A stretch of DNA of 57,769 nucleotides from a virus (IMGVR_UViG_3300006754_000018:1-57769), one strand, 5' to 3'; shown: positions 4,163-43,538, numbered from the stretch's first letter. Numbers and translations are program-made. Notes: a model not told the origin generated them from the letters alone.

Positions 4163-4191
4163 TTGAATGAATCCTTTTGATGTACAAGTAC

Positions 4192-4250
4192 ATCATAACA
4201 TAAAAAACCACCCTCATGGGGTGGTCTTGTGACAGTTATTCAAGTGGTTT
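4192..4250 (-). promoter_or_regulatory. Early promoter: palindrome (4229-4250) plus TATGAT
   Basis: GTGACAGTT-ATTC-AAGTGGTTT. Confidence 0.7.
4202..4225 (-). terminator. Intrinsic terminator nested in promoter
   Basis: ACCACCC/GGGTGGT stem plus T-run on the minus strand. Confidence 0.75.
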
Positions 4251-4725: not shown

Positions 4726-5236
4726 ACAGGAAGTCGGTTCTGTACTTAAATGATGGTAACTTATTGCATAAGGATTGCAATACTTCAGTATCACCATCCT
4801 GTAAAGATGTTACAAAGTTAGTAACAAGAATGTCCTCTAATAATTGGTACTCATCCTCATTTAAGTTGAGTGTAAAATAGTTCATGCTGATACTTCCATC
4901 CATTTAATAGGGTTTCCAGTTGTTAGTTTCCATAGGTAAATTGGGCAACCTTCGTTATCATTAGACCAAGCATATGCTGCAGTCTTTGCTTCATCAAAGG
5001 TGTCATATTCCCTATTATAAGTTTCATCATAGTTGAAACTAATTGTTAGTGACCATTTCATTATCGTACCTGATAAGTGATACTGTCATCTGCATCTGCA
5101 AGATAACCTAACTTTTTAATAATGGAAGATTGTTGTACTGAGTATAAATCTTCTCTTACATCATACGCACGTTTCTGTAATATATCAATGAGGAAATCAC
5201 ACTCCCTCGCTGTTAAGTTAATTGACCCTTTCATTG

Positions 5237-6152: not shown

Positions 6153-6178
6153 TAGTCTCCTTTTGTTGGTACTTTTAA

Positions 6179-6237
6179 ATTATACCATAAAAAAAGGGAG
6201 GTTTGAACCTCCCTTGTGACACTTATTTGACTGGTAC
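6179..6237 (-). promoter_or_regulatory. Early promoter: palindrome (6216-6237) plus TATAAT
   Basis: GTGACACTT-ATTT-GACTGGTAC. Confidence 0.75.
6189..6215 (-). terminator. Intrinsic terminator nested in promoter
   Basis: AAGGGAGG/CCTCCCTT stem plus T-run on the minus strand. Confidence 0.75.
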
Positions 6238-15687: not shown

Positions 15688-17364
15688 ATGACTGAGACCA
15701 ATTATTCAGCAATTGAAGAACTTAAAGAAGAGGAGATGAATCTCAATCCAGATCTTTATAAAGGTTCTTTCACATATGCTCACTATACTACTGGACAGGA
15801 TAATCATCTGTACAAGAGTTTATCTACTGTTGGTGATTTCTATTGCAAAATATGGTATCGTAATGAAGAGTTCGATGACACCAGAGTAAATGGTGAAAGG
15901 AATGTTCTAATAGTTGGTACAAATGATGGTGATCCATTTATAAACGATGCTGAAACTATTCACAGATACCTTGACATGCCAGGAGCAGTATTTGTTAATG
16001 CACAATATAGACAACAACTAACTGACTTAACCTATGCCAACAGGGATCTCAAGGATTGTGTTAAATTCCTCTCTGCATGTATAGGTAAGTATAATGGTAA
16101 TAAAGATACAATCAAACTTGTAGATCCTAATAATAATGAACTAACATATACTATGGTGTATGATGAAAAAGCATTAACTTTAGAAGTTACTGATTCAGAT
16201 GCACCACTAACATTATCGGATACATTCCCCAACACAATGTCTGAGGATGCTCCTATTAAACAGTTTGGAAGTAATATCGCTGGTGAAGCATCATGGATGG
16301 ATGGTGCTATAAATAAGATTTACAATACCGTTCTAGGTAGTGGTTCTATTGGTTTTAATAACATAAAGGGTGACTTCCAAAGTGGAGATAACTCTATCAG
16401 TCAGTATTATAGAGGTGGTAATAATATTGGTAATATATCTCAGAATAATAATATACCTACTGGTGGAACAATAAGTTGGTCAAATTTCCGTAACGCATGT
16501 AATAAGATTGAAGCAAACTGTTCAGGAAACTTCGATCACTTAGAAGCACGTTGGGAGATATATGGAAACCAAGAATGGACTGCCAAAGTAAATAAGACTA
16601 TTATATTAAGTGGTCACTGTGGTACTAGAGATCAGAATCAACCTGCTCTTAGATTCAATAACTCTGGTAGTGGTAATACAATAGAATTTAAAATTATTGC
16701 TCAGGGTCGTGTATATGGTTGGGCAGGATCACCAGCGGGATATAACTTAAGTCAGGGGCCTGTAGATGGTAGTGGTACTCTGACTAACGGAGGTCCAGGC
16801 GGTTATGCAATACACATGGCATCATCCATCAAAATTGGGAACGAATGGAATGGTCAGATCGCTGGGGGCGGTGGAGGCGGAGGTAAAGGTGGAACGGGTG
16901 GTCAAGGTGGTTGTGGAGGACACGGCGGTTCTCGAAGATGCAATGGTTCATTCTGTTGGAACACGAAGAGAGTGTGTCACAGGAATGGTGGTGATGGTGG
17001 ATCGGGCGGTCAAGGGGGTCGAGGTGCATGGGGTTATGGATATAGTTGGGATTCCGCAAATGGAATCTGGTGCAATATTTCTGGTACTCACTTAACATCA
17101 CCAGGCGGAGGTCAAGGAGGTCAAGGCGGTAGAAGTCGTGGAGGTGGTTCAGGAGGAACTGGAGGTCAAGGAGGAAATGGTGGATCCCTAGAAAATGGCG
17201 GTCAAGGTGGAAGAACTGGTAATAAGGGTAATAATGGTGGTGGTGACGAACATGGATGTGGTTATCCCTGTAGTAGATCAGGATCCAACGGAAGTGGTGG
17301 AACCAATGGCGGTAGTGCCAGTGGCAAATATACTACAAGTCATACAGGTGGAAGATATACTTAG
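15688..17364 (+). CDS. Gly-rich tail-fibre adhesin-like protein (gp38-like polyglycine C-terminus)
   Basis: GGTISWSNF motif, then repeated GGxGG runs separated by Cys/aromatic loops. Confidence 0.65.
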   Translation: MTETNYSAIEELKEEEMNLNPDLYKGSFTYAHYTTGQDNHLYKSLSTVGDFYCKIWYRNEEFDDTRVNGERNVLIVGTNDGDPFINDAETIHRYLDMPGAVFVNAQYRQQLTDLTYANRDLKDCVKFLSACIGKYNGNKDTIKLVDPNNNELTYTMVYDEKALTLEVTDSDAPLTLSDTFPNTMSEDAPIKQFGSNIAGEASWMDGAINKIYNTVLGSGSIGFNNIKGDFQSGDNSISQYYRGGNNIGNISQNNNIPTGGTISWSNFRNACNKIEANCSGNFDHLEARWEIYGNQEWTAKVNKTIILSGHCGTRDQNQPALRFNNSGSGNTIEFKIIAQGRVYGWAGSPAGYNLSQGPVDGSGTLTNGGPGGYAIHMASSIKIGNEWNGQIAGGGGGGGKGGTGGQGGCGGHGGSRRCNGSFCWNTKRVCHRNGGDGGSGGQGGRGAWGYGYSWDSANGIWCNISGTHLTSPGGGQGGQGGRSRGGGSGGTGGQGGNGGSLENGGQGGRTGNKGNNGGGDEHGCGYPCSRSGSNGSGGTNGGSASGKYTTSHTGGRYT

Positions 17365-37404: not shown

Positions 37405-39180
37405 TTATCCTGTGTATCCTAATTTAGTTAAAAAGAGATCTGACATTTGAACTCCTCCACCACCCATAATTACCATTTGAGGGCCTCCTCCTTGGTTGCC
37501 ACCACTAACCACAACAGCATTCCCTTTTCGATCTGGTGGAGCCTGTGAAATAAGGTATGTATTGTTATTTACCAAACGACGTTTGGTCTTATTATAAAAA
37601 GGATACTCCTCTGGAACAGACTGAGCAACTTGAATTGGAACAACTCCACTCTTTTGTAATGTAGTTGAAACATCAGCAGGAGGTAGGGAGGAATGAGGTG
37701 GATGAGGAGGACCAGCCTTAGAATCTGTAGTCAAATGACCAACCCAAGTATGACCAGTTCCAGGCAAAATACCACTAACACCCTCATTACCACCATAAGC
37801 GTTGACATCAGTTAAAGCAACTGGAACCTTAGTACCTTCTGGTACAAATATATCTACTGATCTACCATCACCACTGTGTGAATGTTGTTGAATACCTAAT
37901 TTTATTAACTCAGTAATCTGTTCTTTACTCATTCCTTTTTCAAATTTCTGACCACCAGCTAATTCTGTTGGTACATCTTGTGCTACTAACTTCTCTACTA
38001 TAGGGATAACATCTTTTATAAGATCATTAACAGTACCACTATTAGTTTGGAAATGTCCATGAACCCATCCAGCAGCATTGCTTATGCGTCCAGTTGATCC
38101 AAATGTCGAACCACCACCAGTACCCTGAGCTAAAAGACCACCCATACCACCAGTAGAAGCTAGCAATGTCTCATCATTAGAAGGAAAAACAGAACTTGTT
38201 GGTTTAAACGATCCATATCCAACTCTATCACCTATATTAATTTTATTTCCATCACGATCATAATTATCTTCATCGTGTTTTTTATTAGGATTATTTGATC
38301 TTTTGTGGAGGGCCTCCACATCCGTATAATTTAATTTAATCTTAGAGAAGTTCTCTTCATCAAGAGCCCCATCAGCACGAGGGAACCCATCTTTATCAAC
38401 TGTTCTTTCAGGTTCATTCTTTTTATCAAAATCAAACCAATTAAATGTAAGAGCATCTAAAGTACCACCAGTAATTCTTTTAGTTCCTTCCAGCATATCT
38501 CTAGCTCTGTCACCAGACCATTCCCAGAAAGATGGGCCCATTGCTCTCATTAATAACCCACTATCGACAAGTTGTTCTAGTTCTTTTGATAACTTATAGA
38601 ACTTATCAACATCCAATTTCTCCTTCTTTGTTATACTATCATCCTCCTTCTTCATTAAACCACCAGTAAGAGACTTAGGCTGATTTGACTTAACACTTGC
38701 AAGATTCTTTACAGTCTTATCAATATTACTCTTTCTCTGTTCTGCAACATCATCAAAAGTTTTCTGTCCCTCCTCAGCTTTCTTCTTCTCAGCACTGAGT
38801 TCCTTCTTCATCTTATTCTTATCACCACCATATTGTTCTTGCAATACAGTCTCAGTTGTTCCTTTCTCTTCTGTTGGAGGAGCAAAAGCTAATGCTCCCA
38901 TAGTAAGTAATGCACTACCAGCAGATATAGGTAACATTTTATCCATGAAACCACCACCAAATCCAGAAGAACCAGATCCTTTAGCACCTTGAAGTCTATC
39001 AAGACTCTTAATAAATGCTTTGGCTTTAAAAAAAGTAACAGGTTCTGGTAACTTTACCTTAGAGAAATCAGCTACCTTACCAGTAATAAACTTATTAAAG
39101 TCCTTTATACGATTGTCAGCCTTTTTGACAGTCTTCTTAACCTTCTTTGTAACCTTATCGACAGAAATACCAGGCTTCAT
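37405..39180 (-). CDS. Tail/baseplate hub protein with possible His-rich peptidase-like domain
   Basis: Basic N-terminus, TM-like segment, HGHFQ / HSHSGDGRSVD / GHL motifs. Confidence 0.6.
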   Translation of the reverse strand: MKPGISVDKVTKKVKKTVKKADNRIKDFNKFITGKVADFSKVKLPEPVTFFKAKAFIKSLDRLQGAKGSGSSGFGGGFMDKMLPISAGSALLTMGALAFAPPTEEKGTTETVLQEQYGGDKNKMKKELSAEKKKAEEGQKTFDDVAEQRKSNIDKTVKNLASVKSNQPKSLTGGLMKKEDDSITKKEKLDVDKFYKLSKELEQLVDSGLLMRAMGPSFWEWSGDRARDMLEGTKRITGGTLDALTFNWFDFDKKNEPERTVDKDGFPRADGALDEENFSKIKLNYTDVEALHKRSNNPNKKHDEDNYDRDGNKINIGDRVGYGSFKPTSSVFPSNDETLLASTGGMGGLLAQGTGGGSTFGSTGRISNAAGWVHGHFQTNSGTVNDLIKDVIPIVEKLVAQDVPTELAGGQKFEKGMSKEQITELIKLGIQQHSHSGDGRSVDIFVPEGTKVPVALTDVNAYGGNEGVSGILPGTGHTWVGHLTTDSKAGPPHPPHSSLPPADVSTTLQKSGVVPIQVAQSVPEEYPFYNKTKRRLVNNNTYLISQAPPDRKGNAVVVSGGNQGGGPQMVIMGGGGVQMSDLFLTKLGYTG

Positions 39181-40772
39181 AATGCATCCACAATGTTATA
39201 CGTATTTTTGCTATACATGATAGCAATATTATTATTATCAAATGGTAGTAAGAATGGAACTCTAGAAGAATTAGAAGTATCTTGAGTTGATGCTATTGGT
39301 TGAGTTCCTTGTCTAGCAGCTTTATTAGGATCAGTTCCGAGAGGAACAGGAATTATATTCTCATTCGTCTCTACATCTGTAGATGCATCTGCTTGTTGAG
39401 ACACTCCAAGAGAATTATCCTTTCTTATATTAGAGTCACCTTTAGAAGGTTCTACTTTTGTTTGATTCTCTTTATCAGCATTCCAAGTATCACCAGTCAA
39501 TCCATCGAAAATCTTAGCCATCACTTTCATAACACCTTTTGGTTTCTCTCCTTCAGGTGTTTCTATATTAGTATTCTTCTTATCAAAATCAAAAGCATTA
39601 AATGTAAAGAGATCTCCTATACCTCTTATCACACTTGATATCCCCGTATGACCAGATTCGCCACGCTTACCTTTCATTCCTTCCTTACCATCAGTACCAT
39701 CCTCTTTGGCAGGTTTAGTACTTAATACATTAGATGTTGTAAGGGGAGTTGATTGTTGAACAGTACTTTCACCTGTACCATCCCCATCACCATGATCAGC
39801 AACCTTTACACCACTTCCAGTTGTCTCAGGAATTACTTTTTCTTTTGTAGTAACAGTACTATCTGGTTCTTGATAGGGTATTACCTGTAATTTCTGTACT
39901 GGGGCCGCAGATGTCTCATCTTCCCTTGGTAGGATAACATCTAATTCTGCTGGTGCCTCGCCTGGTATTAAGGCTGTCTGTGTTGTACCTGCTAAACTCT
40001 TCGGTTTTTCTTGTTCTTCTCCATTTTCAGGTTTTACTTCTTCTTCTTCTGGATCCTTCCCTTTAGCAGCTTTCTTTACCTGATCTTCAAAATTCCAAAT
40101 AGTTTCCTGAAGAGTCTTAACTGCTTTATTAAATTTCTTTATTTCCTTCTTGTTTAATAATTCTGTACCTTCTACTGGTTCTATTGGTGTAACCTTACTT
40201 CCTGGCTTAACCTTTTGTGATTCTCTACCTTTCTTCAGTAATTTACTAACACCCCAAGTTGTCAAAGCAATTAACCCAAGAGTTGCAGCACCCTTGAGAA
40301 TATTCTGAATTAAACCACCTTTCTTCTTCTTAGGTTCCTTAGCACTCTGAGTCTTAGGAGATAAATTTATTTTAGTAAGTTTCTTGAGAAGACTGACAAA
40401 TATCTTCTTAGCCTTGTCAATAAACTTAAATATCTCTTGAAGTGGTTTCTTAAGAGATTGCAAACTCTTTGCGAATGCTTCTAACTGACCCAGACCACCT
40501 TTAAAGATCTTAGCCAACATGGCTCTGGGATCAAATGGTTGTACTGCTTTGGAAACCTTCTTAACTATTTTTGGTTGGAGTCTAGTAATCTGACTCTTAA
40601 CTATCTTACGTACTTTAGTAACAGTTACTGGAGTACCATCATCCTCTGGAAGTTGTAACTTCTTAATGGATCCCTTAAGTACCGAATCCGCTCCTTTAAC
40701 TTTTCCTTCAGTCTTAGGAGAACCCTTTGATGAAGAAATCTTTCTGTTAAGTATAGGTGAAGCTACTACCAT
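39177..40772 (-). CDS. Tail/baseplate hub (tape-measure-like) protein
   Basis: Lys-rich helical N-terminus, short GXY run; directly after gp51. Confidence 0.6.
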   Translation of the reverse strand: MVVASPILNRKISSSKGSPKTEGKVKGADSVLKGSIKKLQLPEDDGTPVTVTKVRKIVKSQITRLQPKIVKKVSKAVQPFDPRAMLAKIFKGGLGQLEAFAKSLQSLKKPLQEIFKFIDKAKKIFVSLLKKLTKINLSPKTQSAKEPKKKKGGLIQNILKGAATLGLIALTTWGVSKLLKKGRESQKVKPGSKVTPIEPVEGTELLNKKEIKKFNKAVKTLQETIWNFEDQVKKAAKGKDPEEEEVKPENGEEQEKPKSLAGTTQTALIPGEAPAELDVILPREDETSAAPVQKLQVIPYQEPDSTVTTKEKVIPETTGSGVKVADHGDGDGTGESTVQQSTPLTTSNVLSTKPAKEDGTDGKEGMKGKRGESGHTGISSVIRGIGDLFTFNAFDFDKKNTNIETPEGEKPKGVMKVMAKIFDGLTGDTWNADKENQTKVEPSKGDSNIRKDNSLGVSQQADASTDVETNENIIPVPLGTDPNKAARQGTQPIASTQDTSNSSRVPFLLPFDNNNIAIMYSKNTYNIVDAL

Positions 40773-40963: not shown

Positions 40964-41734
40964 TTAGGCGAAAAAATCAGAGAGTCCCTCCAATGTGACA
41001 GGATTATCCTTACCAGTCTTAGGATTGGTAACAACAATATCATGGGTAAGTTTAGGCATAGTCTCAAAGAAGTTTTCAATCTTCTTGAATTGCTCTGAAG
41101 TAAGAGATTCAAGCCATTCTACAAGTTCCTTCTTAGTACATTCTTTAGCAGCCCAAACATTATCATCACTATAAACCATATCAATAGAAGATGCAATAAT
41201 CTGGAAAGACTTTTCAACCCCTCCATCATCTGGAGCACCAGCTCCTCGGATATCAGAATAGAGGAGCTGGTGCTCCACTCCATCATCAGAGAAATTATCA
41301 TCTAAGAATTGATTCAAAGAAGGATACTTCATCTTAAGAGTATATCCCTCACCCAATTGGATCTCTTGACTATGATTAGGATCGGTTTTAACCTCAACCT
41401 CATCAATGTTAATAAAAGCTGGGACTTGGGTTTCACCATCATCACCACAGGTAACAACAATTTCAATCTGTTCTCCAACAGACTTACCACGAACATTCAA
41501 AAAGATATATTCAATATCAAAACTAGGAAGAGTATCAACTTTGATTCCTCTAGTAATGATACAGTCTTTTAATACCTGTTTGACTGCGTTGGAAATTTGT
41601 TTTGGGTTCTGTGATTCTAAGGCTAGAATTAGAATCTTCTCTTCTCTAACTAAAAACGGTCTAAACTTAATTGTCTTTCCTGTAGAAGGTAGAGTCAATT
41701 CATGTTGAGAAGTACTAATTTTTGGTAAAGGCAT
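40964..41734 (-). CDS. gp26: Baseplate hub subunit gp26
   Basis: MPLPKI...LPSTGK.IKFRPFLVREEKIL...GKSVGE...LEGLSDFF. Confidence 0.95.
   Translation of the reverse strand: MPLPKISTSQHELTLPSTGKTIKFRPFLVREEKILILALESQNPKQISNAVKQVLKDCIITRGIKVDTLPSFDIEYIFLNVRGKSVGEQIEIVVTCGDDGETQVPAFINIDEVEVKTDPNHSQEIQLGEGYTLKMKYPSLNQFLDDNFSDDGVEHQLLYSDIRGAGAPDDGGVEKSFQIIASSIDMVYSDDNVWAAKECTKKELVEWLESLTSEQFKKIENFFETMPKLTHDIVVTNPKTGKDNPVTLEGLSDFFA
41221..41287. repeat. 47-bp hairpin (17-bp perfect inverted repeats) flanked by 10-bp direct repeats; in-frame insertion in gp26
   Basis: CTCCATCATC [TGGAGCACCAGCTCCTC-N13-GAGGAGCTGGTGCTCCA] CTCCATCATC. Confidence 0.9.
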
Positions 41735-41789: not shown

Positions 41790-42047
41790 TTATCCCTGTG
41801 CTCTATCACCTTTCTGTGTATATTCATCTTGTTTCGTAAAGAACTCACTCATGCTTGATTGACAATCAGGTGGTTCAGGGTACTTATATCCTTTCATCTT
41901 TCTCCATTTTCCATGCATTGCACCCATCATCCAGCTAGCTGCAAGACTCTTGGGACCATTCTCAAGCAGATCTAACTCATACTTGCTAGAGGTATAACCC
42001 TTATACTCTTCTCTCCAATTAGAATCGTCAAATGGTGGTTTGTTCAT
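41790..42047 (-). CDS. Conserved cyanophage hypothetical protein
   Basis: DDSNWREEY...LLENGPKSL motif; start taken at MNKPP. Confidence 0.75.
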   Translation of the reverse strand: MNKPPFDDSNWREEYKGYTSSKYELDLLENGPKSLAASWMMGAMHGKWRKMKGYKYPEPPDCQSSMSEFFTKQDEYTQKGDRAQG

Positions 42048-42558
42048 AGGTGTAAGTCTTTTTCCCAACTTTAGTGTGTCCATAGGGGCCAGTTTTATTT
42101 GGCCTTACTTGTCCGAGTTTAGAACCTTTATTAGAAACTCCAGTCGAGGTCTTTTTAGCTCTCTTGGCAGTAGGATGTAAAGTAGCTTTGCCTTTACCCT
42201 TCTTAGTGATTACTGAATCTTGGTTGTATTCTTTACCAAGACGTTTCATCCGTTTCTTAAAGGTCTTATACTTTTTCTTAGGAGCATTAACAACAACAGA
42301 TGGTTCACTCACTGTTTTTTTGTTGCCTTTATCATCCTTTTCAGGATATTCTCCTTTAACTTCCTTATATCCATAGCCGTGACTACGGATCTTCTGACGT
42401 AACTCCTTGTTACTCTTTTTATTCTCCTTTTTTGACTTATCACCTCTTGTTGCAGTTAGAACTGCCGTGTTGCGACTCTTGGAATGAGAAACCACACGAG
42501 ACATTCCACCCTCAGTAAGAGAGTTACATTCTAACACAAATTCGATGAAAGTCTTCAT
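42028..42558 (-). CDS. Basic protein with T4 capsid-targeting-like N-terminus (possible internal head protein)
   Basis: MKTFIEFVLE; late promoter ATAAATA at 42591-42597. Confidence 0.7.
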   Translation of the reverse strand: MKTFIEFVLECNSLTEGGMSRVVSHSKSRNTAVLTATRGDKSKKENKKSNKELRQKIRSHGYGYKEVKGEYPEKDDKGNKKTVSEPSVVVNAPKKKYKTFKKRMKRLGKEYNQDSVITKKGKGKATLHPTAKRAKKTSTGVSNKGSKLGQVRPNKTGPYGHTKVGKKTYTYEQTTI

Positions 42559-42593: not shown

Positions 42594-43538
42594 TTATGCC
42601 AGACGGTTCTCATTAGCAGTGTTACTGGTTGGTGCTCCAGATGATGGTGGGAGTGCTGATCTGGCAGATCCACTTAAAACAGTCTGACCATCATGAGTTG
42701 TACCTTGTGAATTAGCCCACGTACTATCACCTTTATTATTATCAGGTTGTACGATAACGTACCTATCATATTTGAAATTAACAGTAACTTGAAGGACCTG
42801 AGCATCCCCATAAGATAACTGAATACTATCAACACTTTCTGGGAAAGCATTAACAAACTGATATGATAGTGGATTTGGTCTCTCTGGTGGGGTCAATGGT
42901 GTTACAACTCCAGGCCTATTAATCATTTTACCCATATCACCCACCATCAATCCTTCATCCTTATTTCTTGCACCAGCCCCTATATTCCTTTCAAATTTAG
43001 TAACAGTAATATCTCTCTTATAACTATGTGGATACCTAAATCTATGAAATCCTTGTCTATCCTTCTGATTGGCATATCCAATTGGGTTACCTTGAACATT
43101 TCTCATACCACCATTAGCGGCATATACAGGATTAATAAAATTAATCCATTCTTGAAATAATCTAAGAACTTGATAATCAGCTGAAAGATAAAACTTTAAA
43201 TTTAAATCAACATAAGCTCTTGACTGTGCAAAGAATTCAGTTACACCCTGTCTTGCTCCAGACTCTTCAATTGAAGCTAAATTAGTACCAGGCAAACTTG
43301 CTTCTGAACATAAAAAATCAAACCTCGCTGCAGTACTCTTATTGAATACTCCAGAAGTAACAAGCCAAGTGTTTAAATCTGTATTAGCACTACCATTATT
43401 CTTGTCAGATAGACCCAATGACACCTTAAATGTATTGGATAAAGCAGGAGACCCTAAAAAATTCTGAAACGATTGAGCCGCTATCCCTTCTCCACCACCA
43501 TCATTGGTTATATTAGCGAGTAAGTTACTTTCTGCCAT
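42594..43538 (-). CDS. Baseplate tail-tube initiator (gp54/gp19-like)
   Basis: LCSEASLPG...FQEWINFI...Y.F.NAFP.S.....LSY...VTVNFKY; start taken at MAESN. Confidence 0.75.
   Translation of the reverse strand: MAESNLLANITNDGGGEGIAAQSFQNFLGSPALSNTFKVSLGLSDKNNGSANTDLNTWLVTSGVFNKSTAARFDFLCSEASLPGTNLASIEESGARQGVTEFFAQSRAYVDLNLKFYLSADYQVLRLFQEWINFINPVYAANGGMRNVQGNPIGYANQKDRQGFHRFRYPHSYKRDITVTKFERNIGAGARNKDEGLMVGDMGKMINRPGVVTPLTPPERPNPLSYQFVNAFPESVDSIQLSYGDAQVLQVTVNFKYDRYVIVQPDNNKGDSTWANSQGTTHDGQTVLSGSARSALPPSSGAPTSNTANENRLA

Follow-up and report, generated by a model that had tools for sequence, protein, structure and literature searches.

A perfect hairpin in the gp26 baseplate gene of an uncultured cyanophage as the probable scar of a templated inverted insertion

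A perfect hairpin within the gp26 baseplate hub gene of an uncultured cyanophage is, in our assessment, the trace left by one templated inverted insertion that template switching produced (probability about 0.8). Its material derives from one donor locus, gp7, in two pieces of opposite orientation: on the gp26 sense strand, 31–32 nt of gp7 antisense sequence are followed by 17 nt of gp7 sense sequence. The insertion is absent from four alleles at 98.6–98.9% identity and from all more distant gp26 loci, and each junction, inspected by eye, has 0–1 nt of microhomology. The event would have been a copying accident, either in replication or in the repair of a break, in an ancestor of the S-SSM7-like lineage: a segment of about 31–32 nt from gp7, which encodes a baseplate wedge protein, would have entered the acidic linker of gp26, a region of variable length, in inverted orientation. 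Directly behind it, the beginning of this gp7 copy would itself have been copied over 17 nt, inverted in turn, giving a 17-bp stem and a 13-nt loop. Relative to the nearest empty alleles, the net change would amount to 48 nt (16 codons) and one G/A difference, and the ribosome would read through the insert as a 16-residue extension that was tolerated, inherited and remains polymorphic. Template switching is the mechanism that we infer for this accident.

The window, by which we mean the whole stretch of DNA analyzed, comes from IMG/VR, where it is a virus record 57,769 bases in length with an estimated completeness of about 25%. The gene carrying the insertion lies at 40964–41734 on the minus strand and encodes 256 aa, of which residues 10–256 match the T4_baseplate family (PF12322, E 3.6e-73); cyanophage records label the matching gene gp26 or baseplate hub. 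A DNA search with gp26 returned 168 phage records, all of them cyanophages and 166 of them at no more than 80% identity, with S-SSM7, S-SSM6a and P-SSM2 among the best matches. The source is an uncultured S-SSM7-like cyanomyovirus.

Anatomy of the hairpin and tolerance of the insert

On the plus strand, the locus consists of CTCCATCATC (41221–41230), a 17-nt left arm (41231–41247), a 13-nt loop (41248–41260), the complementary right arm (41261–41277) and a second copy of CTCCATCATC (41278–41287). The initial annotation had described this arrangement, a 17-bp inverted repeat around a 13-nt loop with 10-bp direct repeats at its flanks, and we recovered it in full: the arms are complementary at 17/17 positions and the flanks identical at 10/10, or at 12/13 when the direct repeat is extended to 13 nt. 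The loop and the right arm are parts of the gp7-derived stretch, while the left arm repeats 17 nt of that stretch in inverted orientation. The first copy of the direct repeat corresponds to the native GAT GAT GGA G of the acidic linker, and the second stands where the empty alleles have an imperfect GAT GAT GAA. Measured against the nearest empty alleles, the in-frame insertion comprises 48 nt (41231–41278, minus strand, with a placement that is ambiguous by 1 nt) and its 16 codons encode V153–P168. When the repeat is counted as well, 57 nt are added, and translation of the ORF agreed with the earlier claim that these make up 19 extra codons in frame, reading DDGVEHQLLYSDIRGAGAP without a stop.

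Such a repeat goes well past what chance would produce: for this window, a rough estimate of the expected number of perfect 17-bp inverted repeats within 80 nt is 2.7e-4. The 17-mer had three matches at up to 3 mismatches, a count that was reached in 0/100 shuffles, and among the matches listed the gp26 hairpin is the sole perfect inverted repeat longer than 12 nt. The G+C content of the arms is 65%, against 37% for the window. As an RNA, the hairpin alone has a predicted folding energy of -34.9 kcal/mol, and folding of its 127-nt context gave a z-score of -4.7. A terminator function was considered and dropped, as neither strand has a U/T run after the hairpin.

By analogy with T4, we take gp26 to be essential. 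In an AlphaFold2 model of the protein (35-sequence alignment, mean pLDDT 80.8, pTM 0.75), residues 147–170 form the sole segment with pLDDT below 50, between helices 140–147 and 170–183; this segment is the acidic linker, which varies in both sequence and length among relatives. Because the insert is stop-free and is located in the low-confidence linker of this model, its plain translation as a tolerated linker extension would be sufficient, and the inserted residues are probably translated rather than skipped. The earlier suggestion that the insert was tolerated through preservation of the frame also held, since the frame stays open over 48 or 57 nt.

Occurrence of the insertion and its empty alleles

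The same insert was found in three further contigs from other assemblies, L042 (also listed as L017 and L138), L043 (also listed as L037) and L137, with 0–1 differences over 771 nt, and 15 contigs on record encode a protein identical over all 256 aa. In addition, 20 public marine runs from 15 studies contain at least 57% of the sampled words of gp26, and four of these runs (X6, X9, X14 and X16) were aligned to the gene as assembled Logan contigs. Among the runs listed for the gene there was no RNA data set, which has no bearing on whether it is expressed. The contigs of X9 and of X6, which may be the window's own sample, cover 40964–41276 and 41249–41734 with 0–1 other letters. In both runs, each contig extends from one flank through the adjacent arm and the loop into the other arm, of which it includes at least 16 nt. 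Amplified viromes give rise to inverted chimeras, and an assembly or amplification artifact of this kind would be in keeping with the fact that the Logan contigs break inside the hairpin. The breaks, however, fall at 31-letter words that the hairpin has in common with gp7, and the presence of the insert in three contigs of other assemblies, the record of its protein from 15 contigs and the reach of the X9 and X6 contigs well into the second arm leave an artifact with a negligible probability. Judging from these assembled sequences, the insertion is confirmed as real, and as recent, inherited and polymorphic in the sea.

We then compared 160 related loci of gp26, 80 from a viral and 80 from a metagenomic collection (the two overlap), four of which have the hairpin and four of which read NFSDDEDDGGVEKSF. 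The latter are empty alleles (L044, L045, L139 and L140) that show 8–10 differences from the window over 723 aligned nt and lack the 48 nt. Their site, TCT GAT GAT GAA GAT GAT GGA GGG (DDEDDGG), equals that of the window minus 48 nt and with one G/A change. The same empty form was present in the contigs of X14 and X16, in which 41232–41280 is skipped and a single T stands between the two sides. The next relatives, 84–88% identical, have four acidic codons at this place, with neither an insert nor such a near-tandem repeat. An alignment with relatives, which had been suggested as a way of finding empty alleles, was thus successful in that such alleles exist, but their sequence is not the predicted one: the single-copy allele expected after removal of the insert, NFSDDGGVEKSF, occurred in 0/160 loci.

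The origin of the flanking repeat has to be considered separately. The segment is derived relative to every relative outside the lineage, and to this extent the claim of an insertion stands; the "target duplication" that was part of the same claim, in contrast, was mostly there beforehand. Because 8/9 nt of the second repeat copy already stand in the empty alleles, the 10-bp repeat is ambiguous as a sign of transposition. We consider it somewhat probable that the flanking repeat is mostly a pre-existing near-tandem run, GAT GAT GAA GAT GAT GGA. Alternatively, the templated origin may be kept while the event itself is taken to have put a 47-nt hairpin into a single GATGATGGAG, duplicating 10 bp, so that the empty DDEDDGG alleles would be later losses, produced by an in-frame loss of 48 nt (removal of the hairpin) and a subsequent G-to-A change. 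Perfect palindromes are unstable, only one G/A difference separates the window minus 48 nt from the empty allele, and the flanks are perfect at 10/10, better than the 8/9 copy of the empty alleles, a difference that fits an event-made duplication or an excision footprint about as well. This course of events is nevertheless somewhat doubtful, although by no means far-fetched: the outgroups at 84–88% identity have four acidic codons, so that a two-codon ancestor needs an extra deletion; the single-copy allele was seen in none of the 160 loci; and a deletion caused by slippage between the 10-bp repeats should leave a single copy rather than the form observed.

The gp7 donor and the alternative readings

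A scan of 2.9 million viral contigs for the 17-mer yielded 39 loci. Both arms together were present only in L017 and L037, at the orthologous gp26 site, and at the remaining 37 loci the complementary arm had no nearby match with fewer than 4 mismatches in 17. Thirty-five of these loci share the 17-mer alone, mostly within unrelated coding sequence. Outside gp26, L031 and L034 are the only ones of the 39 viral loci to share more than the 17-mer, being exact over the arm and the loop. By blastn, the 32-nt stretch at 41247–41278 (plus strand, equal to the gp7 sense strand in related contigs and antisense in the gp26 mRNA) matches L031 at 4756–4787, and also L034, at 32/32 positions, and no further similarity to the window was found in these contigs. 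The match in L031 lies near the C-terminus of an open-ended ORF of 1622 aa, the last 299 residues of which match gp7, the baseplate wedge initiator, of S-SSM7 (68% identity) and of 15 other cyanophage records.

In gp7 itself, these nucleotides code for GYQNRGAGAPQ, a conserved motif. The motif (WG.IYGYQNR...) is found at that spot in 15/15 gp7 homolog loci, with a DNA identity that declines gradually, and the match to the window's stretch is exact only in the two closest of them (L122 and L123). Because all 15 gp7 loci have the motif and their DNA divergence is graded, the stretch is, on the evidence of these sequence comparisons, native to gp7 and was copied from there into gp26 rather than the reverse. 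The stem is perfect because the second piece repeats, inverted, the sequence with which the first begins. In S-SSM7, gp7 and gp26 share a strand and are separated by about 69 kb. gp7 is missing from the window, which holds about 25% of the genome, and its absence fits the synteny with S-SSM7, which places gp7 beyond the window start. Flanks of gp7 type appeared as loose ends at 41247 and 41278 in three of the four aligned runs (X9, X14 and X6). The donor gp7 co-occurs with the phage and is presumably located in the same genome (in cis). As a separate observation, the sense-oriented arm (41261–41277) is read within gp26 in the frame used by gp7, and the motif RGAGAP now occurs in both baseplate proteins; the shared frame is probably a coincidence, with a chance of 1 in 3.

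The initial annotation had interpreted the hairpin as a MITE-like element or as a bypass element comparable to that of T4 gene 60. Transposition of a MITE-like element into gp26, with generation of a 10-bp target-site duplication, would explain why the terminal inverted repeats of 17 bp are perfect (17/17), why a direct repeat of 10 bp is present at the flanks and why a G+C-rich hairpin stands within an A+T-rich genome. It would not be expected of such an element, however, that among 2.9 million viral contigs the hairpin is confined to a single locus, or that 32 of its 47 nt exactly reproduce conserved coding sequence of gp7. The duplication, moreover, largely pre-exists in the empty alleles, with the single-copy site in 0/160, and a relaxed scan of species genomes returned only hairpins with different loops. 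We therefore find a mobile element highly unlikely. The search for copies of the 17-mer with other duplications that had been recommended gave none among the viral contigs, the two arms occurring together only at the gp26 site of L017 and L037.

A programmed bypass, with take-off at the GGA before the hairpin and landing at the GGA after it, would produce gp26 without the 19 residues, either alone or beside the long form. Codons GAU GAU GGA are indeed matched on either side of the hairpin, as had been pointed out, with the GGA before and the GGA after it 57 nt apart, and a strong hairpin (-34.9 kcal/mol) occupies the gap between them; that the codons match follows from the flanking repeat. Of the features of a gene-60-like hop, however, none but the matched GGA pair and the gap hairpin is present. 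The codon next to the take-off GGA is GUG and not a stop, the predicted stem begins 1 nt past the take-off GGA and does not contain the take-off codon, and, since the insert is in frame and stop-free, nothing requires a hop; the same annotation had correctly remarked that no stop codon forces bypassing. Programmed bypass of the insert is accordingly scarcely credible, while occasional hopping, or pausing of ribosomes at the hairpin, may take place.

Mitochondrial byps are bypass elements comparable to the gene 60 cassette. The features that bypass cassettes conserve, according to 10.1101/2022.08.31.505936, include a take-off codon inside the take-off stem-loop. Compared with the gene 60 cassette as presented there, the gp26 insert is similar in being a structured insert of about 50 nt with matched GGA codons in a gene of a T4-type phage. 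It differs in that the take-off codon is outside the stem-loop and is followed by GUG rather than a stop, that the insert has no associated homing-endonuclease element and that the frame is uninterrupted.

Palindromic sequences that are translated have been described elsewhere. The Rickettsia palindromic elements are multi-copy families of about 150 bp, with 44 insertions in R. conorii, according to PMC10969869. As with these elements and other intragenic MITEs, a palindromic insert in gp26 would be translated in frame and add a segment to the protein; unlike the Rickettsia elements, the gp26 patch has 47 nt, is single-copy, derives from a coding gene and is confined to a single locus. The coding palindromes of Nematomorpha mitochondria, described in PMC6649704, resemble it in that a translated gene holds a perfect inverted repeat, but there the repeats are many and long and both arms lie in conserved protein regions, whereas gp26 has one short repeat in a non-conserved linker.

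We also searched for the hairpin with a relaxed pattern (11 nt per arm, 5–35 nt between). This DNA pattern covered the viral contigs and the species genomes, whereas the metagenome contigs were scanned with the protein. Among viral contigs it found four, namely L017, L037 and two unrelated ones, and in 185,579 species genomes it found 49 contigs, none with the phage loop and none from marine picocyanobacteria. A host-derived repeat was set aside, as all 49 genome matches have different loops and belong mostly to high-G+C bacteria. One Roseibacillus MAG (L225, L229, L233, L248, L253 and L262) has at least seven copies of a hairpin repeat of its own, about 52 nt long, the stems of which share 11 nt with the phage arms by chance and the loops of which are conserved among the copies. 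It looks like a REP- or MITE-like family that is unrelated to the phage.

For the templated inverted insertion that we favor, the mutational literature offers two sets of comparisons. We know of no NHEJ pathway in T4-like phages, and template-switch mutations at quasipalindromes or inverted repeats reportedly figured in the classical T4 rII work. In yeast, "distant inverted insertions" are events in which a double-strand break captures a pair of fragments that come from a single donor locus and face in opposite directions; in PMC11724301, they are explained by template switching followed by capture, and the median microhomology at inversion junctions is 6 bp. The gp26 insertion is like these events and like MMBIR (PMC11724301) in that a short insert came from a distant donor and formed an inverted repeat. 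It is unlike the yeast events in its T4-like phage host, in its microhomology of 0–1 nt and in being fixed in a wild lineage, in frame and within an essential structural gene. In the quasipalindrome template-switch mutations of E. coli and yeast, strand switching creates or perfects inverted repeats, also within coding sequence, as reported in PMC7202029 and PMC8604942; these mutations act on a local imperfect repeat that is already present, whereas the repeat in gp26 was built from the sequence of another gene.

Several specific paths were worked through and abandoned. Priming through a TGGAG/CTCCA pentamer that the gp26 flank shares with the gp7 stretch predicts a product that differs from the one observed, and the same is true of a strand switch at the GATATC palindrome of the loop and of a snap-back of the gp7 antisense strand. 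By eye, we derived no step-by-step template-switch path that reproduces the gp26 product. A limited literature search turned up no study that deals with templated insertions in a cyanophage or a T4-like phage.

A second patch and other features of the window

Upstream of gp26, a tail-tube-like gene (PF23849; 42594–43610, minus strand), in the position that corresponds to hypothetical gene 009 of S-SSM7, has a second patch in its C-terminal tail. Here, about 1.4 kb from the hairpin and in the window only, 37 nt (42628–42664, minus strand) replace 43 nt. A repeat search of the whole window identified 42630–42651 as an inverted copy, at 21/22 positions, of 41219–41240, where the gp26 flank passes into the arm, 10 nt of which are included. 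For this junction 22-mer, 100 shuffles did not yield a single match, and we count the patch in favor of a templated origin of the hairpin, as a further event of this type close by. The window has 15 listed exact repeats of at least 15 nt, the longest three being an A+T-rich motif, the 18-nt pair of the patch and the 17-nt hairpin arms. The patch turns ...SGS-VYNSVDPWNNGVNTA-SNT... into ...SGS-ARSALPPSSGAPT-SNT..., in frame. The unpatched version of 43 nt is present in L042, L043, L044 and L045, and L037 is otherwise nearly identical to the window, the differences being located almost entirely at 39.6–40.0 kb and in the second patch. The window's tail-tube-like protein is on record from one contig, while the unpatched tail is found in 12/12 other full-length members of its 90% cluster. 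The patch is thus known from a single assembly, and the 18-mer in this context was found in no other viral contig.

Because the hairpin occurs without the patch, in L042 and L043, and the patch was never seen without the hairpin, the patch most likely came later, by inverted copying of the gp26 junction after this had formed. The opposite order, with the neighboring gene (10 nt in common with gp7, 9 nt with the gp26 flank) acting as the template that bridged the two, was judged less likely: L042 and L043 lack the patch although the hairpin is present, and the patch is on record from 1 contig but the hairpin allele from 15. The first 13 nt of the second patch have no other match in the window at up to 3 mismatches; the start of the patch could conceivably be a 6-nt fold-back of the preceding GATCTG. 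Two nested patches are found within 1.4 kb, from gp7 to gp26 and then from the gp26 junction to the tail-tube-like gene. It is a tentative and on balance unlikely generalization that recurrent, multi-step template switching in T4-like cyanophages writes short inverted copies of other structural genes into those loops and tails that vary among the proteins of the baseplate and the tail, as a natural source of new loops. The new hairpin may itself seed further events.

If the templated reading is correct, the gp26 locus is a clean natural case of a templated inverted insertion in a virus, with the donor identified to the base and with filled and empty alleles both present in the ocean. The kind of mutation is already known, and here it is encountered in a wild phage. 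The reading also removes a false lead, as the hairpin, the flanking repeats and the matched GGA codons suggest a gene-60-style hop or a phage MITE, neither of which is supported. It would further mean that an essential baseplate protein tolerates 16 extra residues, with a second patch, made from the junction of the first, nearby. Should such events be common, they would constitute an overlooked route to new loop sequence in phage structural proteins, as well as a source of short inverted homologies able to drive rearrangements.

Several other features of the window were recorded. Downstream of gp26 and of an ORF of 62 aa, a 531-aa ORF (39177–40772, minus strand) contains a low-complexity region rich in Glu, Lys and Pro (39500–40050). 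It accounts for the greater part of the differences that are left between the window and L037 or L017, in the form of many small codon indels and clustered substitutions. Some of the states recur in L044 and L045, and the region has the appearance of a hypervariable mosaic. Positions 1–1500 of L017 do not align with the window, while the rest aligns at 98%, which places a mosaic boundary near 44.9 kb of the window (beyond 44907). Between the tail-tube-like gene and gp26, a 176-aa ORF (42028–42558, minus strand), which overlaps a 97-aa ORF at 41790–42083, matches S-adenosylmethionine lyase (PF23780, E 3.2e-16) and may provide a putative anti-restriction function inside the baseplate gene cluster. 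An A+T-rich motif of 25 nt that ends in CATAAAAAA occurs three times, at 314–338, 4183–4207 and 6170–6194, with an exact 18-mer shared by two of the copies, and may be a promoter or another regulatory motif. Finally, a structural gene contains GGN GGN repeats with a 9-nt period at 16870–17183, which encode a Gly-rich, collagen-like segment.
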